Source of the DNA: an uncultured delta proteobacterium
Lineage (GTDB): Bacteria; Desulfobacterota; Desulfobacteria; Desulfobacterales; JAFDCJ01
Reading direction: 5' to 3'
DNA: 64,000 bases
Assembly (NCBI GenBank): GCA_963769935.1
Contig: CAVYNY010000036.1
Coordinates: forward strand, 21,554 to 85,553
Shown here: in pieces, positions 34,707 through 60,142 of the stretch
Position numbering within the stretch: the first letter of the stretch is position 1
Layout: each line of letters starts with the position of its first letter
Notes under the pieces: generated by a model
Seen by the model: only the letters and a program-made list of their open reading frames with translations
What the model was told of the DNA's origin: nothing
Databases searched by the model: none
Made by a program: the position numbers and the translations under genes

Positions 34707-36011
34707 TTAGTGCATGGCATTGGGTATAATCAAAGCCAGCTGAGGAAAAAGGACTAGGATCACCATGCTGAGAATACAGGCCAACAAAAAGTAGGAGACG
34801 CTTTTAAAGATGGTCCCCAGCTCGATATCGGGTGCCAATGCTTTGACAACGTAGATGTTCACCCCCACCGGAGGGGTGATGGCACCCATGGTGGTTACCA
34901 TGGTGATGATAATGGAGTACCAGATGGGATCGAAACCAAGAGCGACTCCCAGCGGAAAAAATATCGGGATGGTGAGCACCAGAAACCCCAGTGAATCCAT
35001 AAAACAGCCCCCGATCAGATAAATGGTCAACACGAGGGCTAAGATAACGTAGCGCGACACTGGAAGTGCAGCCGCAAAATCAGCCACAATAAAGGGCAGC
35101 CGCGTCACCGCCAGGAAGCGCCCGAATATAATGGCTCCGGCCACCAGCATAAATACCATGCATGAAATCTTAAGAGTTTCTCCGATGGAATTAATCAATC
35201 CTGCCCAGGTCAACCTGCGACTGATGGCGCTGACGACCAGGGTAAAAAAAACGCCGACCGCCCCGGCCTCGGTAGGGGTAAATAATCCGATATACAGCCC
35301 CCCGATCACCAGTGTAAAAATAGTGATTGCCTCCACAACTCCGAAAAGCGATCTGATTTTTTCGCTCAGACTGGTTTTCGGGCCGGCCGGACCATAGTCC
35401 GGATGAAGCCGGCAAATAACAAAAATGGTCACAACGAATAAAAGTCCCAACAAAATGGCCGGAATGATTCCGGCCAGAAAAAGCTTGACGATGGATTGTT
35501 CGGTCTGCAGGCCGATGATAATTAGAACCACGCTGGGCGGCATCACAGTGCCCAGGGTACCGCCGGTGACCACTGTCCCGCTGCTCAGACGCGTGTCGTA
35601 ATTGTATTTTTTCATCTGGGGCAGCGCCACTGTTCCCATGGTTGCGGCCGTGGCTGTGTTGGAACCGCAGATGGCGGCAAAAAGTTCATCGGCTCCAATG
35701 GTGGCAATCGCCAGGCCTCCGCGCCAGTGTCCCATCCACTTGTAGGCGGCGTCGTAGAGCCGCTCGGCAATACCGGCATTGAAGGCCAGGTACCCCATGA
35801 GAATGAAAAGCGGGATGACGGTGAGTCCATATTTCGAAAAAGTGGTCCAAAGATCCGTGGCGATCATATTCAATGCTGCGTTAAAGGACACGACATATGC
35901 AAAGCCGCAAAACCCTGTGACTGCCATGGCAAAGCTAACGGGCATTCCCAAAAAAAACAGGACCAGAAGAAGGGCGATGATCCCTATGATTCCAACAATC
36001 GATGGATCCAA
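34707..36011 (-). CDS. dctM: TRAP transporter large permease
   Basis: IPLFILMG, FAAICGSNTATAA, GGTLGTVMPPS, FTPTEAGAVG, ITPPVG. Confidence 0.93.
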   Translation of the reverse strand: MDPSIVGIIGIIALLLVLFFLGMPVSFAMAVTGFCGFAYVVSFNAALNMIATDLWTTFSKYGLTVIPLFILMGYLAFNAGIAERLYDAAYKWMGHWRGGLAIATIGADELFAAICGSNTATAATMGTVALPQMKKYNYDTRLSSGTVVTGGTLGTVMPPSVVLIIIGLQTEQSIVKLFLAGIIPAILLGLLFVVTIFVICRLHPDYGPAGPKTSLSEKIRSLFGVVEAITIFTLVIGGLYIGLFTPTEAGAVGVFFTLVVSAISRRLTWAGLINSIGETLKISCMVFMLVAGAIIFGRFLAVTRLPFIVADFAAALPVSRYVILALVLTIYLIGGCFMDSLGFLVLTIPIFFPLGVALGFDPIWYSIIITMVTTMGAITPPVGVNIYVVKALAPDIELGTIFKSVSYFLLACILSMVILVLFPQLALIIPNAMH

Positions 36012-36500
36012 CTAAGTCGCTCCATTTTTGGCAGGAAATAATTTCAATAAATCAACCAGCAGTACGAGCGCAATCAGAAAGCAACCGAGGGCCACACCGT
36101 AAGTGAAGGGGTAATAGATAATCCTCAGCGTCTCGGTAACTTCACCGGTTTCCCGAATAGTTGCTGCCCAGCGGGCAATTTGCCAACCGGCAATGCAAAA
36201 AAATATCATACAGATAAAATAATTGATCCCGTTGAGAATGGTCTGGGTTCTCTTGGAAAATCGATTGACCAGGATGTCAACCGAAATATGGACTTTTTTC
36301 ATCTGAGTATAACCAAGCGCAGAAGCGGTGGCCACCGCACCAAAAAAGCCCATAAGTTCGAAGGTTCCTTTGATCGGCACCCAGACAAGGCGCGAAAAGA
36401 TATTGGCACAGGTCATCAGAATCATTGCCATCATAAACGCCCCTGCAATCAACAAAAAGGTAACACACAAAACCCGAACTGCTTTCTCCAAAATACTCAT
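36012..36500 (-). CDS. dctQ: TRAP transporter small permease
   Basis: 4 TM segments, HISVDIL motif, between dctP and dctM. Confidence 0.9.
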   Translation of the reverse strand: MSILEKAVRVLCVTFLLIAGAFMMAMILMTCANIFSRLVWVPIKGTFELMGFFGAVATASALGYTQMKKVHISVDILVNRFSKRTQTILNGINYFICMIFFCIAGWQIARWAATIRETGEVTETLRIIYYPFTYGVALGCFLIALVLLVDLLKLFPAKNGAT

Positions 36501-36719
36501 CTGCGGATCCCGAGATATGCCTAATATTTTTAGTAACCTGAGCCGGACAAGCCGCTTGGAGCGAAGTGTGGATTTGTCCGCGTGATGATCTCAATTAATT
36601 GAAGAACCCAACCCAAAGTGAACGCTTTATCAAGAAAGCAGAAATTTGGAGACGGATTACGGAATTTTGACAAACCGCAATCCGTCGGGTGCTTATCGGC
36701 GGCTTTTATCGCAAGGCAC

Positions 36720-37742
36720 CTATTTTGAGTATTTTTTAATGAGGGCCTTGATGTCCGCTACAATGGTCTCGCCCGGCAGGCCTTTGGCTTTGGCATCGGC
36801 AACCCATTTGTCGGTGAGCGGCTGCAGCTTGGCATCCCACTTGGCCATTTCTGCGGAAGAAAGTTTGATCACCTCGACCCCCTGTTCATCGACCGCCCAT
36901 TTCATGGCGTTTTTCACGTGGTTGTCCATGTATTCTCCCGTCCACTCCGATTGCTCCACTTTTAAATCGTCCAGTACCTTCTGGACATCTTCGGGCAGCT
37001 TGTTCCAGCTGTCCATGTTCATGATGACTGCAAAGGGATAGATCACCGTGTCGGTCAGCGTGACATATTTACAGCTCTCAGCAAATTTGAAGTCCTTCAT
37101 CACTTCAAGCGAGGAGTAAAGTCCCTTTACCACCCCCTTTTGCAGGGCTTCGACCGTTGCCGGCATCGGCATCCCCACGGGATTGGCGCCCCATGCCGCC
37201 AGAATCTGGGCTGCCCCCCCGGACGCTCTCAAATCCAGTCCCTTAATATCTTCCAGGGTTCTGACGGGAACCTTCGACATAATGTTGGTCGGCGCCGTGG
37301 CAAACATGGCCAAGACTTTGACCTTGGCAAATTCTTCGGGTTGATATTTTGCCCACAGATCCCACAGCACCAGGCTGCCCACGCGCGCATCCGGTATGCC
37401 AAGGGGCAGACTGGTGGAATTCGTAACGATAAACCGGCCCGGCTGGTAGGCCATGCATAAATTACCGATGTCAGCCTGGCCTGCGATCACCCCATCCATC
37501 ATATTTTTGGCGTCAAGCAGGGTGCTGCCCGGGAAGGTGTTCACCGTTACTTTGCCATTGGTGCGCGTTTCGACTTCTTTTTTCCAGCGCTCCATCTGAA
37601 CACAAGGGAAGGTGGGTGCCGGTGGAAAATTGGCATAGCTAAGCTTAATTGATTCGGCAGTCGCTGATACCGGCCCCAAGGCGGTGAAACATAAAGTGGC
37701 AATAAAAACTGCGACCAAGATAAGTCCTAATTTCTGTTTCAT
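36720..37742 (-). CDS. dctP: TRAP transporter substrate-binding protein
   Basis: Signal peptide; TNGKV...FPGSTL, DIKGLDLRA, GANPVGMP, ALQKGVVKG. Confidence 0.92.
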   Translation of the reverse strand: MKQKLGLILVAVFIATLCFTALGPVSATAESIKLSYANFPPAPTFPCVQMERWKKEVETRTNGKVTVNTFPGSTLLDAKNMMDGVIAGQADIGNLCMAYQPGRFIVTNSTSLPLGIPDARVGSLVLWDLWAKYQPEEFAKVKVLAMFATAPTNIMSKVPVRTLEDIKGLDLRASGGAAQILAAWGANPVGMPMPATVEALQKGVVKGLYSSLEVMKDFKFAESCKYVTLTDTVIYPFAVIMNMDSWNKLPEDVQKVLDDLKVEQSEWTGEYMDNHVKNAMKWAVDEQGVEVIKLSSAEMAKWDAKLQPLTDKWVADAKAKGLPGETIVADIKALIKKYSK

Positions 37743-37849: not shown

Positions 37850-40177
37850 TTATTCCTCTATGATACAAGCGTCAGCGTCTTCTTTGCCCAATTCCCGTCC
37901 GCACAAATCCAACCCTTTTTTCTCGCGGAGCGCGGCCAGCACCTTTTCCGGCGTAATCGGCAAATCCTTGATGCGAACACCGATGGCGTCATAGATGGCA
38001 TTGGCAACAGCCGGGGCTGTCGGGACGCACCCCGGCTCGCCGATACCCTTGGCCCCGAACGGTCCGTCCTTGTCATAGGTTTCGAGCACGGGGGCTTCAA
38101 TGGGCACGGTATCTTTGGCGGTCAGAATTTTGTAGTCCCGGAAATTGGGATTCATATTTTGGCCTTTTTCCATAATTACCTGTTCGGTCAGGGCATAACC
38201 GAGCCCCATCATAACGCCGCCGTACACCTGCCCCTCCAGCAGCATGGGATTAATTGCTTTTCCCACATCGTGCGCCGCCACATATTTCAGGATTTGGACC
38301 TTGCCGGTATCCTGATCCACCTTGACCCGCACGCCATGGGAGCCGAAGGTATACGTCATGGACATATTACCCTTAAAATCTTTGCCCATATTCTCATTGA
38401 CGGGATCATAGAAATACTCGGCCATCAACATCTGGCCGCCGTGGCTGAAGTGCGCTTTTCTAAGGAGTTTGCCGAGCTCGATTCGGTTTTCGGAATTTTC
38501 CGTATCGATAATACAGCTGTCGTGCAGCACCAGCCTTTCCAACGGCGCTTCCAGCTGCTTGGCGCCCATCTCAAGCAGGCGCGCTTTTATTTTTTTTGCT
38601 GCACCGAGGGCCGAATTGCCGGCGATAAACGTTGTTCGGCTGGCATGGGCGCCAACATCCCAGGGGCAGACATCCGTGTCGGAGTGAATGACATGCACAC
38701 CGTCTACCGGCAGTCCAAGTTCTTCGGCCGTTATTTGGGCGATAACCGTGTCCGCCCCCTGCCCCATATCGGTGGCGCCGGTAAAAACGTCGACCTTGCC
38801 GAAATCATCCATTTTGATAATGGTCCCACAGCCATCCGATTTGTAGACCCTGGCACCACCCCCCACGTGAATCAGGGAAGCCATGCCAACCCCTTCCCCC
38901 TCCTTTTTTTCGGCATTCCACTGGAGGGTTTCTTTGATCGAATCCATGCACTCCTCCAACCCACAGGTAGTAATTCGCAAATCCTGGGGGGAAACATCGC
39001 CGGATTTATTGGCGTTAATCCGACGAAACTCAATCGGGTCGATACCCGCTTTTTCCGCCAGCATATCCATGGTGCATTCGATGGCAAAAGTCGCCTGGGG
39101 ATTGCCGTAGCCGCGCATGGCCTGGGCATAGGTATTATTGGTATAAACACACTTTGCCTCGTAGCGGACATTGGAAACACGATAGAGGGTTGTAATCGGC
39201 ATCATCATCACCGACGGCGTCGTGGCGCCCCAGGACGTATAAGCACCATTGTCCAGAATCATGGATATATCCCTGAAAAGCAGTTTGCCGTCCGCATCGC
39301 AGCCCTGTGAAATATAGGTGATCGTCGGCTGGCGGGTAGAGGTGGCGATGAATTCCTCGGCCCGGTTAAATTCAATTTTCACCGGCCGGCGCGCGTGAAA
39401 AGCAAGCAGAATGGCGATATATTCATACGCATAAGTGTCTAACTTGCTGCCGAATCCGCCGCCAATGCAGGGTTTGATGACCCTGACCCGTTTATCTTTG
39501 AGACCCATCGCCTTGAGGGCCTCTGAGAAATCCTTTTGGGCCAGGGACGGAATCTGGGTGTTGGAATAAATCGTAAGATTGTTGGTGGGATCAAACTCGG
39601 CAATCGCACCACTGGCACCCATACAGCAGTGCGTAACCCAGGTCGTGCTGAAGCGGTCTTGCACTACATAGGCTGCCTTTTGCCTGGCAGCATCGACATC
39701 ACCATAATGCAGTTTCCACGGCATTCGGAGCACATTGGTCTTATGCTCTTCGTGCACCAGCGGCGCACTTTTCTGCATCGCTTCCTCAGGATCGAAAACA
39801 CCGGGCAGCGGCTCATAGATCACCTCGATGAGGCTCAGGGCTTCCCGGGCGATATCGGGATCGGTTGCCGCCACGGCGGCGACTTCATCCCGGTAGGAGC
39901 ATACCTTGCCAACCTTCAGCGGCCGGTTGTCCTTATAAAACCCCATTTTTATATCCGGGACATCTTCACCGGTGATAACCGCCCTGACCCCCGGCAGCGA
40001 CCGGGCTCTGGATGTATCAATTTTAACGATCCGGGCATGCGGAAACTTGCTGTATAGGATTTTGCCGTAAAGCATTCTCGGAAGTTTCAAGTCCTGGATA
40101 TACTGAGCGCGACCTGTTGCCTTGTCGACAGCATCTAATTTAGGAACTCTCTTTCCGACTGAACATAGATTTTCCAT
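37850..40177 (-). CDS. Xanthine dehydrogenase family molybdopterin-binding large subunit (IaaI/J/K-like system)
   Basis: KATGRAQY, IGGGFGSK, AMRGYGNPQ, DMGQG, GQVYGG, GPFGAKGIGEPG. Confidence 0.93.
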   Translation of the reverse strand: MENLCSVGKRVPKLDAVDKATGRAQYIQDLKLPRMLYGKILYSKFPHARIVKIDTSRARSLPGVRAVITGEDVPDIKMGFYKDNRPLKVGKVCSYRDEVAAVAATDPDIAREALSLIEVIYEPLPGVFDPEEAMQKSAPLVHEEHKTNVLRMPWKLHYGDVDAARQKAAYVVQDRFSTTWVTHCCMGASGAIAEFDPTNNLTIYSNTQIPSLAQKDFSEALKAMGLKDKRVRVIKPCIGGGFGSKLDTYAYEYIAILLAFHARRPVKIEFNRAEEFIATSTRQPTITYISQGCDADGKLLFRDISMILDNGAYTSWGATTPSVMMMPITTLYRVSNVRYEAKCVYTNNTYAQAMRGYGNPQATFAIECTMDMLAEKAGIDPIEFRRINANKSGDVSPQDLRITTCGLEECMDSIKETLQWNAEKKEGEGVGMASLIHVGGGARVYKSDGCGTIIKMDDFGKVDVFTGATDMGQGADTVIAQITAEELGLPVDGVHVIHSDTDVCPWDVGAHASRTTFIAGNSALGAAKKIKARLLEMGAKQLEAPLERLVLHDSCIIDTENSENRIELGKLLRKAHFSHGGQMLMAEYFYDPVNENMGKDFKGNMSMTYTFGSHGVRVKVDQDTGKVQILKYVAAHDVGKAINPMLLEGQVYGGVMMGLGYALTEQVIMEKGQNMNPNFRDYKILTAKDTVPIEAPVLETYDKDGPFGAKGIGEPGCVPTAPAVANAIYDAIGVRIKDLPITPEKVLAALREKKGLDLCGRELGKEDADACIIEE

Positions 40178-40332: not shown

Positions 40333-40857
40333 TCAATCCTCTAACGCCCCATCATGACCATCCCAGGCTGCCATCGGTTTTTCTACTTTCTGGTAGAAAC
40401 CGCTGACCGACTTTATGGAATCTATAATTTGCACATAGCCGGTGCAGCGGCACAGATTGCCTGCAATGGCATGTTTTATTTCCTCTTCATCGGCATTGGG
40501 ATTTTTGTCAAGCAGGGCTTTGGCGGACATGATCATGCCCGGAGAGCAAAATCCGCATTGGATACCGCCGTTTTCTACAAAGGCCTGTTGTATCGGGTGC
40601 AGGGTACCATCGCCGGATGCCAGGCCTTCGATGGTCACCAATTCCTTGCCGTCGATTTCAGCCGCCAAATAAAGACAGGAATTAACCGCTGCCCCATTGA
40701 CAATAACGGTGCAGGCGCCGCACTCTCCGCCGCCGCATCCTTCTTTGGTGCCGGTATAGCCGAGCTCCTCGCGAATCAAATGCAGCAGCGTCCAATGATC
40801 CTCCACCGACATCGTCAGCGGATTCCCATTGAAAGTAAAGGATATATCTCGTGACAT
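40333..40857 (-). CDS. Xanthine dehydrogenase family 2x[2Fe-2S] subunit
   Basis: GTKEGCGGGECGACTV, QCGFCSPG, GNLCRCTGY. Confidence 0.95.
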   Translation of the reverse strand: MSRDISFTFNGNPLTMSVEDHWTLLHLIREELGYTGTKEGCGGGECGACTVIVNGAAVNSCLYLAAEIDGKELVTIEGLASGDGTLHPIQQAFVENGGIQCGFCSPGMIMSAKALLDKNPNADEEEIKHAIAGNLCRCTGYVQIIDSIKSVSGFYQKVEKPMAAWDGHDGALED

Positions 40858-40990
40858 CAACAACATCTCCTTTTCTTGTAAATTAGAGGAGTATGGGAGT
40901 ATGGGAGAGTTGGAGCATTGTTTTTTTCATTACTCCAGCAATCCATTACTCCATCAGGTATCTTCGCATTTGCAGCCTCTTATTAAAAAT

Positions 40991-41878
40991 CTATGAAGGC
41001 CCTTTTTGCTTCGCCCGCTGCAATGCGGTCAAACCCATACGTTTGACTAAAACCCCGACCATCTCCCGCCGGTACCAGGCAACGCCCCGGATGCTGTCTC
41101 TGACTTTCGATTCTTCGGCTGCAATTTTACCGGCCTCGGCCAGGGCGCTTTCATCGATGTGCCTGCCCACCAGGTGTTTTTCCGCCTGAAGACACCGCAG
41201 CGGCGTGGGAGCTGCCACCCCCAGGCAGATGCGGGCTCCGGCACAAGTTGCCATATCCTCTTGCAGGCTCAGCAAAACGCCGACCCCGAGCATGGGAAGC
41301 TCCATCGCCGATCGTCGACCGTGTTTGACATATGCCCCACCGGTGCGGGGAGCAGGCGGTGGGACCACGAGCTCGGTGAGAATTTCTCCCCGATCCAGAT
41401 CCGGCTGACCCGGCCCTAAAAAGAATCGACGAAGCTCCGCCGTGCGATGGCCTTTGGTGCCATATATATGCGCTTTGGCATCCAGCGCGATCAAAGGAAT
41501 TGCGCCATCGGCTGAAGGAAGGGCGTTGACCAGATTGCCCCCGATCGTGGCAACATTTCGAATCTGCACCGAGCCGATGTTGCTGACCGCATCATGGATG
41601 ATCGGATAGTTTTGCCGTATTATTGCTGAGGTCTCAATGCTGTGGTGGGTGACAAAGGCGCCGATAAACAGCTCGCCGGTTTCATGGTTCAGAAAAAGGC
41701 GATCCTGCGCAACTATGTGCTTCAGGGAGATTAAATAATCCGGCGTCATTTTGCCTTCCTTAATTTTCGCCAGTACATCGGTACCCCCGGCAACATATCG
41801 AGCCCGTTCGCCATAGGATTCGTGCAGCGAAATCGCTTCGTCAAGCGTTTTCGGAACGAGGTAAGTAAATTTTCTCAT
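40991..41878 (-). CDS. Xanthine dehydrogenase family FAD subunit
   Basis: AGGTD, QIRNVATIGGNLVNALPSADG; no HcrB-type [4Fe-4S] insertion. Confidence 0.93.
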   Translation of the reverse strand: MRKFTYLVPKTLDEAISLHESYGERARYVAGGTDVLAKIKEGKMTPDYLISLKHIVAQDRLFLNHETGELFIGAFVTHHSIETSAIIRQNYPIIHDAVSNIGSVQIRNVATIGGNLVNALPSADGAIPLIALDAKAHIYGTKGHRTAELRRFFLGPGQPDLDRGEILTELVVPPPAPRTGGAYVKHGRRSAMELPMLGVGVLLSLQEDMATCAGARICLGVAAPTPLRCLQAEKHLVGRHIDESALAEAGKIAAEESKVRDSIRGVAWYRREMVGVLVKRMGLTALQRAKQKGPS

Positions 41879-42118
41879 AAATACCCCTTTCTTGAAATGA
41901 ATACTGAACATTGACTATTGAAGATTGATGGAAGTCGCTGCGCTGCGTCATTTAGATTATAATTACCTTGAAAAGATAGAATTCCTTAATTCGCCATTCG
42001 TCATTCCGCACGCCGTGAGCCGTGAGCCGTGAGCCTTGCGCCGTAAACCTTCTGCCAAATTCCAGCCCCCGCAACACGCAACACGTAACACGCAACTCGC
42101 ACCCCGCAACACGAGACC

Positions 42119-43309
42119 CTACCCCACTTTCACCACCAGCGCTGCCGCCGTATCCCCCGCGGCACAGCCGGCAAAGAGCAGGTAGCCGCCGCCGCCCATG
42201 ACGACTTCTTCAATCCCTTCGATAATCAGACGACCTGCCGTGGGTCCCTGGGGGTGGCCGAAAATTAGTGAACAGCCGTAATTGTTCATGCGGTTGACGT
42301 CGAGCCCCAGTTTGTCGGCCAGAAATATATCATTGGCGGCAAAGGGATTGTGCGTTTTAACAGCCTTGACGTCGCTCGCTTTAATGCCGGCATTGTCCAG
42401 TGCCATTTGAGCGGCAGGATATACAGCAGCAGCCATGAAGGCCGGCTTGGTGCGGGCATACCCATAGGAAAGCACCTGGATTTCAACATCCGGATCAGCC
42501 GAGAGTTCTCTGGCTTTTTCACGGGTAGTGATGGTAACGGCACAATGGCCGTCCGCCGGATGGGTTTGTGCTCCGAAGGTGTGAACTCCGTTGGGCAGCA
42601 CGGGTTTGAGCTTGGCCAACCCCTCGGCCGTGCTTTCCATGATCCCTTCGTCGGCTTCCAGCATGATTGTCTGCTTCTTGGAAACTCTTAACATCACGGG
42701 GTACATGTAACGCTTTTGAAAGGCGCGACCATCGGCCAAAGCGTCCTGATACTGCTGGTAGCGTCTCAAAGTGACGGCATCGCACTGCTCCCGGGTAATG
42801 CCGGCTTCGGCGGATACATTTTCAGCCGTTTTAATCATGGCCTCACCGGCCCAGGGATCCCGGCCGAAGTTATCCATCAGCCAGTCTTCTGATATTACCT
42901 GGCCGCCCGGTCCCTGTGGATTGGGCCAAACGGCATGGGGTCCGTTGGAGCAACGGTCCGTCATCAGGCAAATGGGTGTCTTGAACAGGCCGGTCTCAAC
43001 TCCGGCACTGGCTTGATATATAGTGATGGTTGAGGTAGAGCAGGCCTGACTGACCAGAAGTCCGGGTATGCCGGCAGCTCCCATCATGGCCGCTGCCCAG
43101 GGGCCGCCGTAAAAGCCGTGAGGCTGGTGGACGGTGATTCCCAGAAAAAGATAATCAAAAATTTTCGGGTCCCAGCTTTTTTCCGCCAGCCATCTTTTTG
43201 CCGTCTCGGCTGCCAGCGAAATGGCATTCTCATTGGCCATACTTCCCTGCCAGCGTGCAAACGGTGAGCTGAAATAACCCCTGTACGGAATATACACTTT
43301 TGTCAACAT
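42119..43309 (-). CDS. Thiolase family protein (non-canonical motifs; IaaA-like)
   Basis: QACSTS, KTHNPF, GHPQGPT, GCAAGDT. Confidence 0.85.
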   Translation of the reverse strand: MLTKVYIPYRGYFSSPFARWQGSMANENAISLAAETAKRWLAEKSWDPKIFDYLFLGITVHQPHGFYGGPWAAAMMGAAGIPGLLVSQACSTSTITIYQASAGVETGLFKTPICLMTDRCSNGPHAVWPNPQGPGGQVISEDWLMDNFGRDPWAGEAMIKTAENVSAEAGITREQCDAVTLRRYQQYQDALADGRAFQKRYMYPVMLRVSKKQTIMLEADEGIMESTAEGLAKLKPVLPNGVHTFGAQTHPADGHCAVTITTREKARELSADPDVEIQVLSYGYARTKPAFMAAAVYPAAQMALDNAGIKASDVKAVKTHNPFAANDIFLADKLGLDVNRMNNYGCSLIFGHPQGPTAGRLIIEGIEEVVMGGGGYLLFAGCAAGDTAAALVVKVG

Positions 43310-44707: not shown

Positions 44708-44821
44708 TGTCAGGTTCCTTGTGCTTCTCTCATTAGGTCTTTAAAAGGTTTCAGGTTTCATACGAGCACCGCCGCTGGCCGCGAGCGTCCAGTCTGATCG
44801 ATAAAAGAAACTTTTAGGAAC

Positions 44822-51173: not shown

Positions 51174-51569
51174 CTAATTCACTATCTCCTGAATGCCGGC
51201 AATAATTTTATCAAACGGGGTCCCGCCGGGGTACACCCCTTTAATACCAAGCGATTTTAGTTTCGGGATGTCCTGTTTGGGAATCACACCGCCCACGACG
51301 ACCGGAATGTCTTCAATTGCCTGCTCTCTCATCAGCGCCAGCATTTTTTTGCTGATGGGAATATGCGCACCCGACATGATGCTGAGACCGATGATGTCCA
51401 CTGCTTCCTGCACGGCAGTCCTGACAATTTGTTCGATCGTTTGATGAAGACCAGTGTAAATAACCTCCATACCGGCATCCCGCAGGGCCAAAGCAATGAT
51501 TTTTGCCCCGCGATCATGCCCGTCCAATCCCGGTTTGCCGACAAGAATTTTTATTCTCTTTTGCGACAT
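51174..51569 (-). CDS. Cobalamin-binding small subunit of acyl-CoA mutase
   Basis: KPGLDGHDRGAK (DxHxxG), GLSIMSGAH, GGVIP. Confidence 0.95.
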   Translation of the reverse strand: MSQKRIKILVGKPGLDGHDRGAKIIALALRDAGMEVIYTGLHQTIEQIVRTAVQEAVDIIGLSIMSGAHIPISKKMLALMREQAIEDIPVVVGGVIPKQDIPKLKSLGIKGVYPGGTPFDKIIAGIQEIVN

Positions 51570-51675
51570 ATGCTTTAAATTCTCCCGCAGTAAGGGTTTG
51601 ACTTATTCTATTAGGGACACGGATAAACACGGATTTGAAGGACAATCATAAATTCTTCGCAAGCGGGTTCGGCCA

Positions 51676-52541: not shown

Positions 52542-53732
52542 TTAGATAATCCCCTTTTCCTTAAGACCGGCAAGTTCAGACTCGGAGTAACCAAGCCGGG
52601 GGCCGTAAATTTCCCGATTGTGTTCTCCGAATCGCGGCGGAAATGAAAGCTGTCGCCGCGAGGCTTCCATAAACGGCGTCATATTGGGCGGCGGCGCCAG
52701 TGTAATGCGGATCCCGGTGACCGGGTCCTGAGCGTGCATCAGTCTTCTTTCCACCAGCGGATCGGTAATCACTTCGGCGATTGTATTAATTTTGGAGACG
52801 GGAACCGTAATTGAAGCGAACAGTTCAATCAGTTCTTCGGAAGTATAATTTCTGGTTATGGCAGTAATCGCAGCATTTAAATTAACGACATGCCCGATAC
52901 GGCCGGCGTTTTTGGCATATTCGGGTTTGCCCAGCGACCTGAAGATCTCCTGGGATACCATACTTTGCCACTGCCGATCGTTGCCAACCGCAAGATAAAT
53001 ATAGCCGTTGCTGGTCTGGTAGACGCTGACCGGACAAAAGAACTCGTGAGTGTTGCCGCGCCGGCTAATGGATCTACCGAAACTGTCCGTCAGGGTAATG
53101 GGAACGGTCAGCCATGACACCGAAGACTCAAACATGGCCATATTGATGCAGCTTCCCTCGCCGGTGGCCTGGCGTTTGAAAAGTGCTTTCATCACCAGGC
53201 CGTAGGCGTGTTCACTGGTGCCCATGTCCGGAAGTGGTATGCCCAGCACCTGCGGATCGCCGTCGTAATCGCCGGTAAGCTCCATCAAACCCGAACGGGC
53301 CTGTAGAATAGGATCATAGGCGGCTTCATTGCTGTCCGGTCCGAAACCGGTTACACCCAGCCAGATAATGTCCGGTCTCAAGGATTTTAGCGTATCGTAA
53401 TCAATGCCCAGCTTTTTGTAATTTCTCGGCAGCTGATTGGTGGCAAAGATATCCACCTTCAACTTCCGGATAAGGGCCTGAAAAATTTTCTGCCCTTCTG
53501 CTTCCGCCAGATTCAGGGTCAGGCTCTTTTTGCCGGCATTGATGCACAGATAGTAGGCATTCATCCGCTCCTCAGACAGGACGTTTTCTCCGACCATGCG
53601 ATTGGGGTCTCCGTAAACCGGATGCTCCAGCCGGATGACCGTCATGCCGTCCTGGGCCAGTCTGTAAGTCAAATAAGGTAAAACGGTGGCCTGTTCAAGG
53701 GATAATACGGTGAGGTTTTTGAATAATTCCAT
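52542..53732 (-). CDS. Family III CoA transferase (CaiB/BaiF; IaaL-like)
   Basis: GDPNR, NAGKKSLTLNL, TGFG, AYDPILQARSGLM, PLPD, PPRFGEHN. Confidence 0.92.
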   Translation of the reverse strand: MELFKNLTVLSLEQATVLPYLTYRLAQDGMTVIRLEHPVYGDPNRMVGENVLSEERMNAYYLCINAGKKSLTLNLAEAEGQKIFQALIRKLKVDIFATNQLPRNYKKLGIDYDTLKSLRPDIIWLGVTGFGPDSNEAAYDPILQARSGLMELTGDYDGDPQVLGIPLPDMGTSEHAYGLVMKALFKRQATGEGSCINMAMFESSVSWLTVPITLTDSFGRSISRRGNTHEFFCPVSVYQTSNGYIYLAVGNDRQWQSMVSQEIFRSLGKPEYAKNAGRIGHVVNLNAAITAITRNYTSEELIELFASITVPVSKINTIAEVITDPLVERRLMHAQDPVTGIRITLAPPPNMTPFMEASRRQLSFPPRFGEHNREIYGPRLGYSESELAGLKEKGII

Positions 53733-53824
53733 GTAGTTTCTCCATATCCCGGTTCGTTTGGAATTTATTGGATCTCATACGTGCGGATACCTTTCCCCAG
53801 GCTAACCTATCCATCCGGGTAAAC

Positions 53825-53860
53825 GAATACTGTATACGGTATACAAAGTAAAAATGTCAA
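53825..53860 (-). promoter_or_regulatory. Sigma70-like promoter overlapped by GTATAC-repeat operator (site 2)
   Basis: Minus strand TTGACA-tttttacttTGTATACCG-TATACA-GTATTC, heading the CoA-transferase/gntR/mutase run. Confidence 0.7.
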
Positions 53861-54230
53861 GAATTGTTTTCCCCTTAGATGACAGAGGTCAGAAGACATA
53901 GGACAGATGACAGAAAACAGATGACCGAAGTTAGAGGTCAGATGACGGAGGGCAGAAGTCAAAGGCCAGAAGTTAGGAAGCAGGGAAGTTAAGAAGCTGA
54001 GAAACTGGGGTGCTGGAGGCTGGTAGAATACTATTCGTGAGCGCATAAGTTCGTGATTCTCAAAGACCTTGAGCATTCAAAAAACTTATGGCTCGTCAAC
54101 CAAATCAACAATTCTTCCAACATCCAGCATCGAGTATCCAGCATCCGGAATCCTCTACCCGGCACTTACGCTATGCCCCATGCCCTAAGCGCTATGCCTT
54201 ACTCCCATGCCCCGCAACACGCACCTCGCA

Positions 54231-55388
54231 TCACTTGGCTGCATACATACTTGCCGCGCACTCATTTTTGCCGAGATCCATAATTTCCTGCTCTTCGGCA
54301 TCGACATCCAACAGCCCGGCATTGACTTTGCGAATTTGGGCATATTCCGGGGGCTGCTGTCGCATATTGTCTTTGATGAATTTGGCAAATTCGGCTTCTT
54401 CATCAATATCGTAGATAGCCGCATTTTTCTGTTTGATGCTGCCGAGCGTATCGATAAACATTTGATCCGGGTTGGCTTCACGCCACTCGATGTAATGGCC
54501 CGGCAGGATGATCAGATCATCATTTAATTCGGCAATCTTTGTTTTCAGGGTGTTAAAGAGCAGCTTCGACCATTGTTCGACTTTGCCGCCAAGGTCGGGT
54601 CGGCCGATGGACAAGATAAAAACGGTATCGCCGGTAACCATAAATTTATTGTCGATAAGGTACGAGGTGCTGCCGGGTGTGTGTCCCGGCATATGAATCG
54701 CTTTGATTTCAGGTCCGCCCTTGGAAAAATGAAAAACCTCCTGATCAGAAACAGCCTTGTAATTAAATGCCGCGCCTTGAAAATCGTTTATATGGCCTAC
54801 GATCCGAGCACCGGTAATCGACGAAATCTGACGGCTGCCGGAAATATAGTCGGCCTGTAGATGGGTTTCAAAGGTTTTGATCAGTTTACAGCCGTTTTCG
54901 GCGGCAAAATTTTGATAGAAATCAATGTTTCTGGAGGGGTCAAATACCGCCATTTCATTTTCATGAATCAGTCCGTAACTGCAGGATGCCTTGCCGGGTC
55001 GAATAAACTGGTATAATTGATACCCGTTTTCGGAGGCGACTAATTTAGGGGCCAGCATGTTGCCCCAGGTTTTAATGCCGCCTTTCAGATAGCGCACATC
55101 CGTCCATCCGTTATTCACGAGAATTTCACCCACGTATTTGGCGGAACCCTCCTTGGCACACACAATGCGGAGGCTTTCATCCTTGGGAACCTGGACCCTC
55201 GCGACCGACTCATCTTCCATCTCGATAAATTCAATGTAGGGAACATTGATCATCTTTGAAAGATTGGGTCCCTCAACCTTGAATCGACCGAACTCCTCGT
55301 TATTGCGAACATCCAGCAGGGTAAAATCGCTTCCTTCTTTGGTTACCCATTCGAATAAATCTTCTGCCCTGTAAGACTGCAGCTCCAT
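54231..55388 (-). CDS. Rhodanese + metallo-beta-lactamase fusion (persulfide dioxygenase-like)
   Basis: LLDVR...VCAKEGS rhodanese domain; THLQADYISG, PGHTPGS, TGD, GRPDL, LPGH. Confidence 0.85.
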   Translation of the reverse strand: MELQSYRAEDLFEWVTKEGSDFTLLDVRNNEEFGRFKVEGPNLSKMINVPYIEFIEMEDESVARVQVPKDESLRIVCAKEGSAKYVGEILVNNGWTDVRYLKGGIKTWGNMLAPKLVASENGYQLYQFIRPGKASCSYGLIHENEMAVFDPSRNIDFYQNFAAENGCKLIKTFETHLQADYISGSRQISSITGARIVGHINDFQGAAFNYKAVSDQEVFHFSKGGPEIKAIHMPGHTPGSTSYLIDNKFMVTGDTVFILSIGRPDLGGKVEQWSKLLFNTLKTKIAELNDDLIILPGHYIEWREANPDQMFIDTLGSIKQKNAAIYDIDEEAEFAKFIKDNMRQQPPEYAQIRKVNAGLLDVDAEEQEIMDLGKNECAASMYAAK

Positions 55389-55592
55389 GTTGTACCCCCT
55401 TTCTGATGGTTATGATGCAATATATTTTTGATAAAATGGACTTAGGGCTCACTGTTGAAATGAAGTCCATAGTTTGTATCATATAATCCAGTCAAATTGT
55501 AGAACTTCCGGTGTGGCAACTTTCATACTTTTGGAACCAGCTTTTTAATTATCGTTACGAATTATTTTAAATTTTTTATGCATTTTTGCACG

Positions 55593-56396
55593 CTACCGGC
55601 CCTGGAAATTTGGTTTTCTTTTCTCTATAAACGCCAGTTGACCTTCGTTTAAATCTTCACTTGAAAAAGCAGACTTCGTAATTGCTTCGGCTTCCTGCAG
55701 GCCGCTTGCCTGCAGCGGCGTTGACTGCAACAGCAGATTTATGACCCGCTTGGTGCCTTTGAGAGCCAGGGGTGCATTATCGGCAATCTCTTCCGCCATC
55801 CGGTAGGTAAAAGATTCCAGCTGATCCCCGGAGACAAGATAATCTATCAATCCGAGCTCCTTTAATCTCAGTCCCTGATAGGTGCGACCGGTAAAAAACA
55901 GCTCCCGGGTACTGCGGAGTCCAATGGTCTGGATAAATCGCTGCAGTCCCTGCCACGGATAAACCAGTCCGAGTTTGGCCGGCGGCATACCGATGCGGGT
56001 TTCATCATTGCCGATGCGAATATCGCAGCAGAGCGCCAGCTCGCATCCGGCACCCAATGCAACGCCATTCACCATGGCTATCACCGGATATGGATAGGTG
56101 ATAACGGATTGAAAAAGGGATTCAACCGGACCTAATTTCTTCAGCTTCTCATGGACATTGCCGTCGGGACCCGTGGGCAGGGAACGGATATCGTATCCCG
56201 AGCAAAATGCCTTCCTGCCGGCCCCTCGGATGACTATTGCCCGAATGGAAGCGTCTGCCGCAAGTTCCGGGAGAGTCTGCAACAGCAGTTGGACGAGTTC
56301 CGGTGAAAGGGAATTTTTTTTCTCCGGCCGGTTCAGGATCAAAGTAACCACCTTGTCTTTTCTTTTGACCAGCAGCGGTCTGTCTTCCATGGGCAT
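55593..56396 (-). CDS. Crotonase (enoyl-CoA hydratase/isomerase) superfamily protein
   Basis: LNRPEKKNSL, AFCSGYDI, GAGCELALCCD, GMPPAKLG, FIEKRKPNFQG. Confidence 0.9.
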   Translation of the reverse strand: MPMEDRPLLVKRKDKVVTLILNRPEKKNSLSPELVQLLLQTLPELAADASIRAIVIRGAGRKAFCSGYDIRSLPTGPDGNVHEKLKKLGPVESLFQSVITYPYPVIAMVNGVALGAGCELALCCDIRIGNDETRIGMPPAKLGLVYPWQGLQRFIQTIGLRSTRELFFTGRTYQGLRLKELGLIDYLVSGDQLESFTYRMAEEIADNAPLALKGTKRVINLLLQSTPLQASGLQEAEAITKSAFSSEDLNEGQLAFIEKRKPNFQGR

Positions 56397-56842
56397 CTCG
56401 TTACCTTTTAGAAATTAAGAGCTTAATTGTAGAAATTTGTCGTCTAACCCCGTATGTGACTACTCAAAGTCGAGAAAAGGTTTCCGGTGCCAGCTCCGCC
56501 GCCGGCCAAACCAACGGCCGGTCTGATCAAAATAGAAACATAATAGTTCACCGCGGAGCTCGCCGAGAACGCCGAGAAAGAAAATTTTAATTAGTCTCCG
56601 CGATCTCTGCGTTCTCAGCGGTGAGACCCTTCATAAAATGGCATAGAATCTTATTAAGTTTCATACGAGGTGTCAGCGGCGGCGCCGATACCCGAAAATT
56701 TTAACCTTTAGCCTTGAACCTTTTACATGAACCTCTGCTCCCTGAACCTCTCAACTCTGGCCGCTTTCTAATCTGGCATACAATAACGCATCGGTCGCCG
56801 GTATTCAATATGCTGTTACAGGATTTTCATGCAGATGATCTC

Positions 56843-56940
56843 GCCTGGATTAGATGCAAAGTCACTCGCTTGCATGCAGTCAAACAGACAAAAGCAGCTC
56901 AGCATTAAATAAAATGAGCAGCATATAGTAATTAATCCGC
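56843..56940 (-). ncRNA. Candidate structured non-coding element, copy 2
   Basis: Homologous to 8648-8746; shares CTCGCTTGCATGCAG and GCATATAGTAATTAA exactly. Confidence 0.4.
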
Positions 56941-57046
56941 CGGACCGTCGATCTGACAATTAGCTTCCGGTTTAGAAAGAACAGCTCAGAACCATAAATA
57001 TGCTATCTTTCAAGGCGGATTAATGCGGATTAATTAAGATTAACAT

Positions 57047-57082
57047 TTGACAGCAATTTTTGTGTACAGTATACAGTATGCA
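57047..57082 (+). promoter_or_regulatory. Sigma70-like promoter overlapped by GTATAC-repeat operator (site 3)
   Basis: TTGACA-gcaattttTGTGTACAG-TATACA-GTATGCA (17-nt spacer) upstream of the carboxyltransferase. Confidence 0.7.
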
Positions 57083-57136
57083 TTTAAATACCGAATGGTA
57101 GCGCTTTTTTATCTTAGCCGCAAAGGACGATGACGA

Positions 57137-58699
57137 ATGACTCAAAACAAGACTCACCAAAGCGAATTCGAGCGACTTGAAGCTCTCGAAAGAAGGGCCG
57201 AAACGGGCGGAGGCCCAAAAGCGATTGAGCGCCATCACCAGAGAGGCAAATTAACCGCCCGCGAACGGCTGGCACTGCTTTTCGATTCCGGCAGCTTTGT
57301 CGAGGTCAACAAGCTGGCTGAAAGCCAATCCGTTGATTTCGGCATGCAGGAGAAAAAGGTTCCCGGTGACGGTGTGGTCACGGGTTACGGAAATATTGCG
57401 GGACGCCTGGTCTTTGCCTATGCCCAGGACGTGACGGTGTTGGGCGGTTCGGTGGGTACGATTCATGGTCAAAAAATTTGCCGGATTATGGATGAAGCCA
57501 TAAAGGTTAAAGCGCCCCTGATCGCTTTGAACGATTCCGGCGGCGGCCGGCTGCACGAGGGCTTTTTTGCTTCCAAAGGAGTGGCCGGTATGTTTTATCG
57601 CAATACGGCCGCCTCGGGCTTGATCCCTCAAGTTACCGGAATGATGGGCTCCAGTGCCGGAGTTGCGGTGTACTCACCGGCGCTGACCGACTTTATTGTG
57701 ATGGTAAAAGGACGCAGCCACATGGTGATCACCGGTCCGGCAATCATCAAAGAGGTTACCGGCGAAGAAATCAGCCTTGAAGAACTCGGCGGTGCCAAAA
57801 TACACAGCGAAATCACCGGTCAGGCGCATTTTGTGGCTGAAAACGATGAGGAATGTATTGAAATCATCAAAAAGCTCCTCAGTTATCTGCCGTCCAACAA
57901 TGACGAGCCACCTCCTCATGTCAAAAGTGACGATGACCCCGACCGCGTCGATGACACCCTGGAAGCAATCGTTCCCGCTGATTTTAAAAAATCTTATGAT
58001 ATGCATCGGGTGATCATGCGGGTGGTGGACAGGGAGGATTTTTATGAAATCCTGCCGCGCTATGCCACCAACATCATCATCGGCTTTGCCCGCTTGGACG
58101 GCAGCACGGTCGGCATCGTGGCCAATCAGCCCAGAATCAAGGCCGGCTGTCTGGACGTGAATGCGTCCGACAAAGCCGCCCGCTTCATCCGGTTCTGCGA
58201 CGCATTCAACATTCCCTTAATCAACTTCGTGGATGTTCCGGGCTACTTTCCCGGCGTCGCCCAGGAGCATGCCGGCATCATCCGCCACGGCGCCAAAATG
58301 CTGTATGCCTATTCGGAGGCGACCGTGCCGAAAATAACGCTGGCCCTGCGCAAAGAGTACGGCGGCGCCGTGATGGGTATGTGCTGCGTGGGCATGGGCG
58401 TGGATCTCATGCTGGCCTGGCCCATCGCCCAGCTGGTGGTGCTGGACACCACGGCGGCGGTAAATCTTATCTTCCGCAGGGAAATCCAGGCAGCCGAGGA
58501 TCCTGATGCGTTCAGACTGCAGAAAATAAATGAATATGACTACAAGTATTCAAATCCCTATCACGCGGCCTCCAATATGCTGGTGGACTCCGTCATCAAA
58601 CCGCGTGAAACCCGGCCCCGGCTGATCAGGGCGTTAAAGATGCTCAGAAACAAAAAAAGACCGGAACCGAATAAAAGGCATGGAAACATGCCGTTATGA
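57137..58699 (+). CDS. Acyl-CoA carboxyltransferase/decarboxylase subunit (PccB/MmdA family)
   Basis: GKLTARERL, PGDGVVTG, DSGGGRLHEG, RFCDAFNIP, DVPGYFPG, IIRHGAK, KRHGNMPL. Confidence 0.93.
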   Translation: MTQNKTHQSEFERLEALERRAETGGGPKAIERHHQRGKLTARERLALLFDSGSFVEVNKLAESQSVDFGMQEKKVPGDGVVTGYGNIAGRLVFAYAQDVTVLGGSVGTIHGQKICRIMDEAIKVKAPLIALNDSGGGRLHEGFFASKGVAGMFYRNTAASGLIPQVTGMMGSSAGVAVYSPALTDFIVMVKGRSHMVITGPAIIKEVTGEEISLEELGGAKIHSEITGQAHFVAENDEECIEIIKKLLSYLPSNNDEPPPHVKSDDDPDRVDDTLEAIVPADFKKSYDMHRVIMRVVDREDFYEILPRYATNIIIGFARLDGSTVGIVANQPRIKAGCLDVNASDKAARFIRFCDAFNIPLINFVDVPGYFPGVAQEHAGIIRHGAKMLYAYSEATVPKITLALRKEYGGAVMGMCCVGMGVDLMLAWPIAQLVVLDTTAAVNLIFRREIQAAEDPDAFRLQKINEYDYKYSNPYHAASNMLVDSVIKPRETRPRLIRALKMLRNKKRPEPNKRHGNMPL

Positions 58700-58993
58700 A
58701 TCCGCAAATGCATTTAAATCAGAAGATTAAATGCTGAGATGAACTATTGAAAATTCCAAATCCCAAACCTCAAATCACAAACAAATCACAATGATCAAAA
58801 TTAAAAATTCCAAACAAATTGAATAAATCTTAATAACTTACAAATAAGTTTCGGTCATTGGTTGTTTGAATTTGAGATTTATTTGGAATTTGGTGCTTGA
58901 AATTTGGAATTTAATATTAACGCAGACGATCACAGAGTTGATGAAAATGCTGATCATTTACATTCAAGAATATAATTAGAAAGGATTGGTATC

Positions 58994-60142
58994 ATGAACT
59001 TCGATCTGACCAAAGAGCAGCAAATCATTCAAAAAGCCGCTCGGGAATTTGCCAGAGGCGAATTTACCGCCGTAGCCCGGGACCTTGATCTTAATGAAGC
59101 GTATCCCACTGAAATCGTCAAAAAAGCAAGAGAACTGGATCTGATCGGCCTTTTTATTCCCGAGGCGTATGGCGGACCGGGCTTGGGATTTTTGGAGCAG
59201 GCGATGGTGCTGGAGGAGTTTTGGAAAGTCGATCCGGGAATCGGCCAGCAGCTCAGTTCCATTACCTTCGGCGCCGAAGAGTTGATTCTATTTGGGACCG
59301 AGGCGCAGAAGAAAAAATGGCTGCCGCCCCTGTTCGACGGCGATGCGGTAATGGGCTTTGCCATTACCGAACCGGATGCCGGCAGCGACACGGCCGCAGC
59401 GACCACAACCGCCGTCAGGGAAGGCAACGAGTATGTAATCAACGGCAGCAAGGTCATGATCGGCAACGGCACGGTGGGCACCTTCATGCTGGTTTACTGC
59501 CTGACCAGTCCCGACGAGGAGCGCAAAACCGCCCGCCACAGTATTCTGATCGTCGAGACGGATCGCAAAGGGTATAAGGCCGATCCCATGCACGGCAAAA
59601 TGGGGCTGCGCGCCTCCGACACCTCGGCCGTGTATTTTAACAATGTCAGGGTCCCCAAGGAGAATTTGCTGGGTGCCGAGGGCAACGGGTTTATTCAATT
59701 AATGAAATTTTTCGACCACTCGCGAGCCTATGTTGCCGGCCACGGCGTCGGACTGGCCCAGGGTGCCCTGGACATGGCCATTAAACATGTCAAAGGCCGC
59801 AAGCAATTCGGCCGCCCCATCGGTTCTTTTCAGGCCACCCAGTTTAAAATAGCCGATATGGCAACCAAGGTCGAGACGGCCCGTGCCATGGTTTACAAAT
59901 CCGCCTGGCTGCTGGACCAGGGCAAACCCGACACCAAACTGACCGCCATGGCCAAGCTCTATGCCTGCCATACGGCCGTGGAAGTTGTGGACGAAGCCCT
60001 GCAGCTTCACGGCGGCTACGGCTATTTCAACGACTATGATATCGAACGCTTCTACCGCGCCGCCAAAGTGCTGGAGATTTATGAAGGCACCAAAGAGGTG
60101 GAAAAAATTGTCATATCGAGGGAGATTTTGGGGAAGCTGTGA
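58994..60142 (+). CDS. Acyl-CoA dehydrogenase
   Basis: FAITEPDAGSD, INGSK, KMGLRASDT, RKQFGRPI, QLHGGYGY, IYEGT. Confidence 0.95.
   Translation: MNFDLTKEQQIIQKAAREFARGEFTAVARDLDLNEAYPTEIVKKARELDLIGLFIPEAYGGPGLGFLEQAMVLEEFWKVDPGIGQQLSSITFGAEELILFGTEAQKKKWLPPLFDGDAVMGFAITEPDAGSDTAAATTTAVREGNEYVINGSKVMIGNGTVGTFMLVYCLTSPDEERKTARHSILIVETDRKGYKADPMHGKMGLRASDTSAVYFNNVRVPKENLLGAEGNGFIQLMKFFDHSRAYVAGHGVGLAQGALDMAIKHVKGRKQFGRPIGSFQATQFKIADMATKVETARAMVYKSAWLLDQGKPDTKLTAMAKLYACHTAVEVVDEALQLHGGYGYFNDYDIERFYRAAKVLEIYEGTKEVEKIVISREILGKL

Follow-up and report, generated by a model that had tools for sequence, protein, structure and literature searches.

Anaerobic degradation of indole-3-acetate is encoded by the iaa operon, which was reportedly described by Ebenau-Jehle in 2012 and Schuhle in 2016 for Aromatoleum aromaticum and Azoarcus evansii. 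A related gene cluster is located in the 64,000-nucleotide stretch of an uncultured Desulfobacterales genome analysed here (hereafter the window, G000:C36:21554-85553; source genome G000, 8.0 Mb, 96.7% complete). Like the iaa operon, the cluster comprises a molybdenum (Mo) enzyme, an ATP-dependent lactamase, a CoA ligase, a family III CoA transferase, a split B12-dependent mutase, a thiolase and a GntR regulator, with a HAD/ECH fusion outside the window, and the pocket motifs of its mutase are common to a canonical-order proxy operon (genome G364). We take IaaIJK and IaaP to be the gene letters of the Mo hydroxylase and the HAD/ECH protein, respectively. Unlike the iaa operon, the window has no IaaF with a GGG motif but a carboxyltransferase and an acyl-CoA dehydrogenase with the motif YEG, a PaaK-type ligase, a divergent lactamase and another gene order. 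A TRAP transporter (DctP/Q/M) stands in place of the ABC binding protein, a difference in uptake already pointed out in a first-pass annotation of the sequence, and yqeB/yqeC and trpB2-serA-iorAB belong to the regulon.

IaaF is an oxidatively decarboxylating benzylmalonyl-CoA dehydrogenase that does not accept phenylpropionyl-CoA; in all its orthologs GGG replaces YEG, and GGG is tied to decarboxylation (PMC8360864). The predicted iaa operons of Desulfatiglans anilini, NaphS2, Desulfocarbo and Ferroglobus placidus carry iaaF together with a dedicated ETF (PMC8360864); a literature search found no experimental test of the clusters of sulfate reducers. The window has the same sulfate-reducer core as these predicted operons but lacks the iaaF-etfAB cassette, which is replaced. 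As iaa clusters of sulfate reducers had already been predicted, such a cluster is expected and the island itself is not new; it is the iaa-type (indole-3-acetate) cluster of Desulfobacterales and a new variant of the known pathway. A comparable split is described in passages of PMC2996986 for strict anaerobes, in which a glutaryl-CoA dehydrogenase that does not decarboxylate and a biotin-dependent glutaconyl-CoA decarboxylase share out a one-enzyme oxidative decarboxylation between a dehydrogenase and a carboxyltransferase-type decarboxylase. In contrast to the system outlined there, decarboxylation would here come first, on an alpha-carboxy (arylmalonyl) thioester, and the enzyme is PccB/12S-like and not GcdA-like.

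Our best reading, which we consider probable, is a GntR-controlled indoleacetate regulon in which biotin-dependent decarboxylation and ordinary dehydrogenation replace IaaF; we infer the substrates, the decarboxylase chemistry, the biotin partner and energy conservation from sequence comparison. No description of a replacement of IaaF by a carboxyltransferase and a YEG dehydrogenase was found in a literature search that had most subscription papers outside its reach, including Schuhle 2016, which may mention clusters without IaaF.

The indole-3-acetate-type core

Open reading frame (ORF) calling and scans with Pfam and NCBIfam covered 48 window ORFs and placed every gene named in the first-pass annotation within the span given for it. 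The core operon consists of the following genes:

52542-53732, minus strand: family III CoA transferase, IaaL-like, putatively for the phenylsuccinyl-CoA transferase step, first gene of the core operon (PF02515; best match of the G364 CoA transferase, 36%)
51676-52371, minus strand: GntR/FCD regulator, likely operator binder (PF00392 and PF07729; in 60 of 80 loci)
51174-51569, minus strand: B12-binding mutase small subunit, IaaG-like (PF02310; 42% to the G364 counterpart)
49336-50970, minus strand: mutase large subunit, IaaH-like (PF01642; 56% to the G364 mutase)
47109-49268, minus strand: ATP-dependent hydantoinase/lactamase subunit A, putatively for opening the ring of 2-oxo-indoleacetate (PF01968/PF05378; 34% to the G364 counterpart)
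45299-47053, minus strand: hydantoinase/lactamase subunit B (PF02538; reciprocal best match of the G364 counterpart, 31-32%)
43418-44707, minus strand: PaaK-family aryl-acetate CoA ligase (TIGR02155 389 bits, below the cut-off of 646; PDB matches 4R1L and 2Y27)
42119-43309, minus strand: thiolase, IaaA-like (47% to the G364 thiolase)
40991-41911, 40333-40866 and 37850-40177, minus strand: FAD, 2Fe-2S and Mo subunits of an XDH-family Mo enzyme (Pfam/NCBIfam)

As judged by sequence, the mutase provides the strongest evidence for iaa identity. Tyr72 of the large subunit is kept, and segment 310-319 is glycine-rich where MCM has His-Cys-Gln-Thr-Ser; the sulfate-reducer version of this segment occurs in 76 of 79 aligned mutase rows. 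Several pocket segments are common to the window and G364 mutases and were not found in four other mutases of G000. The first-pass annotation had named housekeeping MCM among the unrelated subfamilies in which its proteins might turn out to cluster, but the pocket segment is replaced by glycines and a separate MCM cluster is present on contig C19, whose MCM is 38.5% identical to the window mutase. Family-level matches alone name only housekeeping enzymes, and a chance neighbourhood of such genes (MCM, 5-oxoprolinase, purine XDH, propionyl-CoA carboxylase) could be read from them. This explanation is highly improbable given the separate MCM, MeaB and 12S-5S-1.3S genes on C19, the distinct motifs, the shared operator described below and a synteny that is kept in dozens of genomes.

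For the synteny, the 80 best of 181 confirmed mutase loci (73-91% identity) were compared, nearly all of them from Desulfobacterota and many incomplete. Hydantoinase genes were present in 70 loci, the GntR gene in 60, the CoA transferase gene in 59, the ligase gene in 48 and the Mo subunits in 42-45; the usual order in most loci is CoA transferase, GntR, mutase small and large subunits, hydantoinase A and B, PaaK ligase, Mo enzyme and TRAP transporter. As the block recurs around the mutase in 80 loci, the synteny is not due to chance. Guanine plus cytosine content is even along the window (about 47-55%) and no tRNA gene was found in it, so that 'island' is used as a functional term only; no recent insertion is visible.

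As a proxy for the A. aromaticum Iaa proteins we used those of G364, a Pseudomonadota genome with a compact operon in canonical order: regulator, thiolase, ligase, hydantoinase A (709 aa) and B, GGG dehydrogenase, mutase small and large subunits, Mo enzyme, CoA transferase, HAD/ECH and binding protein. Three relatives of its dehydrogenase at 79-80%, among the 120 matches listed, are named benzylmalonyl-CoA dehydrogenase by JGI. G364 was the only genome with a canonical iaa operon in a phylum sample of 401, and no further one occurred in 301 genomes of its family. A plasmid search for A. aromaticum-type Iaa proteins returned mutases only (at most 45%), a scan of metagenomes with a published iaaF primer gave 32 unrelated loci, and a homolog search yielded, among the 120 matches listed, only close Desulfobacterota relatives.

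When the G364 proteins were searched against G000, the best match was the window gene for the thiolase (47%; other thiolases of G000 at most 26%), hydantoinase A and B (34% and 31%), the mutase small and large subunits (42% and 56%), the FAD and large subunits of the Mo enzyme (33% and 50%) and the CoA transferase (36%), which supports the iaa-like reading given in the first-pass annotation. For the G364 ligase, dehydrogenase, small FeS subunit and regulator the best match in G000 was not the window gene. The Mo enzyme stays below the equivalog cut-offs for XDH and 4-HBCR, and its small subunit was likewise not the best match in the reverse search. By sequence, the ligase is not an ortholog of the canonical ligase, and would presumably activate indoleacetate; its top PDB match is the Bacteroides ligase BT_0428, which may activate indoleacetate. 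Ligase and hydantoinase are not clear Iaa orthologs, and both may be non-orthologous parts.

The carboxyltransferase-dehydrogenase pair

The following genes are found upstream of the core operon:

57137-58699, plus strand: PccB/12S-like carboxyltransferase (PF01039, E 2.6e-181)
58994-60142, plus strand: YEG-type acyl-CoA dehydrogenase (YEG motif)
55593-56396, minus strand: crotonase with Pro139 at the place of the second catalytic Glu (191 bits against NF008506, less than the cut-off)
54231-55388, minus strand: rhodanese/metallo-beta-lactamase fusion (Pfam)

The window acyl-CoA dehydrogenase carries YEG and not the GGG of IaaF. No GGG-type IaaF ortholog was found in G000 at E<=1e-95, the best match to a GGG query being 37% identical and of the YEG type. 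The acyl-CoA dehydrogenase gene of the first-pass annotation is present, but it had escaped that reading that the enzyme is not IaaF and that the pair replaces IaaF systematically, which is the real difference from the known iaa clusters. As IaaF is inactive on phenylpropionyl-CoA and GGG is tied to decarboxylation, a YEG enzyme would need a separate decarboxylase, and we propose that it is a 3-(2-aminophenyl)propionyl-CoA dehydrogenase. In a quick tree with a long-branch warning, which took only every second YEG protein, the GGG dehydrogenases of related sulfate-reducer clusters were the sister clade to canonical IaaF (SH-aLRT 100), and the YEG enzymes formed a clade of their own apart from IaaF.

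The two modules exclude each other among the loci and in both genome sets. Among the 80 loci, 14 have the GGG dehydrogenase with ETF alpha/beta, placed between CoA transferase and GntR, 19 have the YEG gene and 24 the carboxyltransferase gene, and none has both modules; the mutases of the GGG loci are 73-81% identical to the window mutase. In the 80 genomes chosen by their mutase, GGG was found in 15, a carboxyltransferase ortholog (71-91%) in 57, both in none and neither in eight. An evenly sampled order-wide set of 251 genomes, each at least 85% complete, contained the mutase in 48, the carboxyltransferase in 30, GGG in 21 and YEG in 28. The carboxyltransferase was present in 27 of the 48 mutase-positive genomes, GGG in 19, both in none and neither in two; the 203 mutase-negative genomes held the carboxyltransferase in three and GGG in two cases. 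Neither carboxyltransferase and GGG nor YEG and GGG occurred together in any of the 251 genomes, and YEG was found in 27 of the 30 genomes with the carboxyltransferase but in none of the 21 with GGG. The replaced form is therefore commoner than the published one in the order-wide sample (27 vs 19 of 251), and so bears on the mineralisation of tryptophan-derived carbon in sediments.

On follow-up, the exceptions G907, G869, G892, G1009 and G851 proved to be fragmented or split clusters: in G851 the YEG gene is present and the carboxyltransferase is cut by the contig end, G907 has the carrier, carboxyltransferase, YEG and hydantoinase B genes, in G869 an operator precedes the carrier and carboxyltransferase genes, and in the clusters of G892 and G1009 the mutases are cut or split. 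In G855 (630 contigs) no module gene was seen. In G965 the core was not found, and the carboxyltransferase gene has been lost from between the crotonase and YEG genes. That genome also contains a carboxyltransferase paralog (L129:10157-11713; 74%, Asn at position 140) that has neither an operator nor iaa genes around it.

On the mutase tree, from which L015, L078 and L079 were left out (the cluster set held no intact ORF of 400 aa or more for them), the module state changes four times, twice across well-supported branches, including within Desulfobacula. The mutase of a genome labelled Pseudodonghicola (L074, G074:C145) nests among Desulfobacula; it is located on a stretch of 52% GC at a contig end, which may reflect misbinning or transfer.

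The carboxyltransferase is PccB/12S-like (best PDB matches 1VRG, 1X0U and 1ON3), scores below the MmdA cut-off (732 vs 998.8) and is 54% identical to the genome's own 12S subunit. It belongs to the family of PccB, transcarboxylase 12S and MmdA and has kept the oxyanion Gly-Ala pair on the biotin side (Gly410-Ala411). Unlike PccB, it has His140, Val149, Val176, Val412-Met413 and Leu436-Asp437. In an alignment of 30 orthologs, all sequences have Val176, Val412-Met413 and Leu436-Asp437 and 29 have His140, all unlike the PccB pattern; Val149 also replaces a residue conserved in PccB, and Phe153 is kept, which is the Phe that MccB changes to Gly. Passages of PMC5187497 describe the acyl pockets of MccB and PccB. 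By alignment with these, the changes would map to the acyl pocket (two Tyr to Val, the position of Asp422 to Met) and might make room for an aryl group. The enzyme would then resemble MccB, as portrayed in those passages, in that it would be a dedicated paralog, altered in its acyl pocket and reliant on a biotin carrier used in common. A single-sequence AlphaFold model was unusable (pLDDT 34.5). We propose that the carboxyltransferase is a (2-aminobenzyl)malonyl-CoA decarboxylase/transcarboxylase. The prediction is thus a PccB-like decarboxylase/transcarboxylase for (amino)benzylmalonyl-CoA, an activity for which the literature search found no description. As benzylmalonyl-CoA has already been made for the work on IaaF, the predicted activity is directly testable; the reverse reaction would carboxylate arylpropionyl-CoA to a polyketide extender unit.

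In ten related loci (L007, L026-L033 and L130) a biotin carrier gene is located directly upstream of, and co-oriented with, the carboxyltransferase gene. The window holds no OadB-type pump, biotin carrier or anchor; two OadB genes and two biotin carriers are found elsewhere in G000. These include a cluster of 5S, OadB, gamma and stand-alone biotin carrier genes (C10:244055-247585) and a second, isolated oadB on C22. A Propionibacterium-like transcarboxylase (12S, 5S and 1.3S) lies beside MCM, MeaB and epimerase genes (C19:45287-53607). Because G000 has the two OadB genes, the C10 cluster and the C19 transcarboxylase, carboxybiotin could either power the pumping of Na+ or serve to carboxylate pyruvate.

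Alternatively, the core may be of the iaa type while the pair serves another role (carboxylation, phenylpropionate use) and decarboxylation is due to the crotonase or an unlinked enzyme. The crotonase does resemble a biotin-independent methylmalonyl-CoA decarboxylase in its NF008506 match, the YEG enzyme is kept in G965, and the carboxyltransferase gene of G000 has no biotin carrier next to it. However, the crotonase occurs in only 9 of the 80 loci and is kept where the core is missing, which also disfavours it as main decarboxylase; the carboxyltransferase was lost from that same G965 locus, excludes IaaF perfectly in both genome sets and has an operator copy of its own. We regard this explanation as unlikely and prefer the pair as the replacement of IaaF. 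The crotonase is probably a passenger or an accessory decarboxylase and the rhodanese/metallo-beta-lactamase fusion probably a passenger, since they occur in 9 and 12 of 80 loci, respectively, and both survive in G965. The two genes separate the core operon from the divergently oriented carboxyltransferase and dehydrogenase genes.

Operator, regulon and proposed pathway

A tandem heptamer site, TGTATAC(A/C)GTATAC, has four matches at three places in the window (0.01 expected); a perfect operator on C34 lies between the HAD/ECH fusion and a divergent operon:

53831-53845: operator before the core operon (CoA transferase), GntR-type site, putatively bound by the regulator
57061-57082, plus strand: operator copy 76 nt upstream of the carboxyltransferase
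30532-30545, minus strand: operator copy before the transglutaminase-yqeB-yqeC-MFS operon (same site in two of three close relatives)
G000:C34:120729-122715: HAD/ECH fusion, 55-57% to the proxy, frameshift-split in the assembly
G000:C34:122836-129363 (L139:12837-19363): trpB2 (frameshifted in the assembly), serA, iorA and iorB, divergent from HAD/ECH

Within a distance of 400 nt, the operator preceded the CoA transferase in 48 of 60 related loci (0 of 60 after shuffling), the carboxyltransferase in 24 of 31 and iorA in 10 of 20 (none after shuffling). It was absent from the 400 nt upstream of dctP (0 of 29), etfB (0 of 14) and the thiolase (0 of 13). Genome-wide there were eight matches with at most one mismatch at six places; shuffled genomes gave two to three, none perfect. 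One of the genomic matches, C10:85327 inside nuoBCD, was treated as chance in view of the two to three one-mismatch matches of the shuffled genomes. An operator-like site also occurs in the region G000:C22:760894-766067 (L146:6895-12068) before genes for a glutaryl-CoA dehydrogenase of the non-decarboxylating type (passes NF045552), ETF alpha/beta and ETF:quinone oxidoreductase. A promoter and terminator scan of 53600-60600 gave results at chance level. Together, these results point to a real, conserved and co-regulated iaa-type pathway, probably under GntR control, with the regulator as the likely operator binder.

In agreement with the first-pass annotation, no 3-hydroxyacyl-CoA dehydrogenase, MeaB or XdhC was found among the 48 window ORFs. 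All three are present elsewhere in the genome: the C34 HAD/ECH supplies the hydroxyacyl-CoA dehydrogenase, MeaB, which is inside 28 of the 80 loci, is on C34 in G000, and there are two xdhC genes. The C34 block directly adjoins the YEG and carboxyltransferase genes in G001, G010 and G851, trpB2-serA-iorAB also lies beside iaa genes in L026-L029, trpB2 adjoins GGG-type clusters in G892 and G1009, and iorA is inside 17 of 80 loci. The ends of C34 and C36 do not overlap, and their adjacency is suggested only by the relatives. Operator and linkage of trpB2 and iorAB lend independent support to an indole-type substrate. For the beta subunit of tryptophan synthase, no gene other than trpB2 was found in G000, and the serA of the block is the only full-length copy; trpD was found in G000, trpA and trpB1 were not. 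As TrpB2 is the only beta gene found, trpD is present and no other serA is full-length, a role of the block in supplying tryptophan is as conceivable as one in catabolism.

Several points weigh against the proposed regulon. The comparison ran against the proxy operon of G364 and not the A. aromaticum proteins, the hydantoinase subunits are 31-34% identical to the proxy, no closer than between unrelated lactamases, and caprolactamase models score G364 above the window (688 vs 546 and 377 vs 276 bits). According to passages of PMC8453981, caprolactamase is 36-37% identical to IaaCE, IaaC and IaaE have 707 and 564 aa, and the lactam-opening step is itself proposed. The ligase is of the PaaK type whereas that of G364 is of the long-chain type, with no match between them. 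G965, in which no core was found, has kept the YEG dehydrogenase, so that this enzyme may have a second use. There are only four swaps, two of them forced by well-supported branches, which gives too few pairs for a sign test to become significant; the two sets of genomes share members; the operator consensus was derived from the window's own sites; and no biotin carrier adjoins the carboxyltransferase in G000.

The differences could also mean the same chemistry on another substrate, e.g., a different N-heteroaryl acetate or a substituted indoleacetate such as 5-hydroxy-indoleacetate, with the divergent ligase, lactamase and transporter reflecting a changed specificity. Apart from the ligase family and the low hydantoinase identity, the values for the FAD subunit (33%) and CoA transferase (36%) and the TRAP instead of an ABC transporter are in line with this. 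But the same divergent parts sit with GGG-type IaaF orthologs in 14 loci, a type predicted as iaa operons (PMC8360864), and trpB2 and iorAB share the operator, and we therefore judge a different substrate to be rather improbable compared with indoleacetate.

In the proposed indoleacetate pathway, indole-3-acetate, or indoleacetyl-CoA from tryptophan, would be the substrate. Uptake would occur by the TRAP transporter, followed by activation by the PaaK-type ligase; the first-pass annotation had placed CoA activation after ring opening, but the legend of Fig. 1 in PMC8360864 puts activation first. The Mo enzyme, which is possibly Se-matured, would hydroxylate the indole ring at C2, and the hydantoinase would open the lactam at the expense of ATP to give (2-aminophenyl)succinate or its CoA ester. 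After a CoA shift by the family III transferase, the B12 mutase would form (2-aminobenzyl)malonyl-CoA. In place of the one-step IaaF reaction, the carboxyltransferase would move the carboxyl group to a biotin carrier, leaving 3-(2-aminophenyl)propionyl-CoA, which the YEG dehydrogenase would convert to 2-aminocinnamoyl-CoA. The off-window HAD/ECH and the thiolase would complete beta-oxidation to 2-aminobenzoyl-CoA and acetyl-CoA. The carboxyl group may be passed on to pyruvate or to a Na+ pump, and the swapped step may let energy-poor sulfate reducers save energy.

The co-regulated trpB2-serA-iorAB genes also offer a concrete hypothesis for anaerobic indole degradation, which passages of a 2018 review call a black box (PMC6221969). 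In a complete free-indole route of sediment sulfate reducers, TrpB2 would fix indole onto (phospho)serine, IOR would yield indoleacetyl-CoA, a Se-matured Mo hydroxylase would open the ring and a biotin-dependent arylmalonyl-CoA decarboxylase would deliver the carboxyl group to pyruvate or to a Na+ pump, so that energy lost in the IaaF reaction would be saved. We put this forward as a tentative and rather doubtful proposal. According to the same passages, the known anaerobic indole route, that of D. indolicum, runs via oxindole and isatin, which argues against assuming a TrpB2 route.

Neighbouring genes and features of the assembly

Further genes of the window are:

36720-37742, 36012-36500 and 34707-36011, minus strand: TRAP DctP, DctQ and DctM (Pfam)
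26844-32206, mixed strands: Mo/Se cofactor block of MFS, yqeC, yqeB and transglutaminase-like (minus) and MocA-like (plus) genes (TIGR03172 and TIGR03309 passed)
28889-29695 and 28036-28836, minus strand: YqeB and YqeC, both above the NCBIfam cut-offs
31577-32206, plus strand: MocA-like gene (173.6 vs cut-off 186.45)

In 19 of the 80 loci, DctP comes after the Mo enzyme. The linked Se-cofactor genes claimed in the first-pass annotation held up: YqeB and YqeC pass their cut-offs and share the operator, and SelD and an XDH-family enzyme are present. Both yqe genes are single-copy in G000, and two selD genes lie elsewhere. The Se block is linked to the cluster in G001, G010, G016 and G036, with yqeB also in G064 and G071, and the transglutaminase-like gene (29766-30461) heads the yqeB-yqeC-MFS operon in G000, G001, G010 and G016. 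The Mo enzyme scores below TIGR03311, and G000 encodes several XDH-family enzymes besides this one.

A second XDH-family enzyme, with a 4-HBCR-like FAD subunit of about 330 aa, is located beside many iaa clusters of both types (L126:4057-7874, L136, L034, L036 and L040), and this subunit occurs in 10 of 80 loci. It is a candidate reductive deaminase of 2-aminobenzoyl-CoA; no ortholog was found in G000 (best 39%).

The first-pass annotation had also noted benzoyl-CoA reductase parts nearby. ATPase subunits are indeed there, at 14110-21006 (BzdQ passes TIGR03192), but the catalytic parts are not, as no BzdN or BzdO exceeded its cut-off in the genome, and no full class I benzoyl-CoA reductase was found in this 96.7% complete genome. 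The reductase-like region (14110-22040) holds three BcrAD/BadFG ATPases, an FeS-flavoprotein of 840 aa, DUF6125 and an ORF that resembles dihydroorotate dehydrogenase and looks truncated; in G010 and G016 the same genes are located after the Se block.

The cluster is covered by contigs from one DNA run and from three RNA runs on sediment, the latter from a single study; with DNA carry-over possible, they were not used as evidence. Dispersed intergenic repeats were found at 44743-45001, 31320-31573, 56475-56539 and 58700-58993 (52-98 BLAST matches per intergenic region in the genome), the first two being inverted copies that are 90% identical. These repeats are the source of the depth peaks at 44255-45556, 55973-56623 and 58577-59227. 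At 60639-63756, the ORFs of a PAS/GAF sensor and a sigma-54 activator overlap by 59 nt and probably represent one frameshift-split gene, as is the case for several other genes of the assembly.

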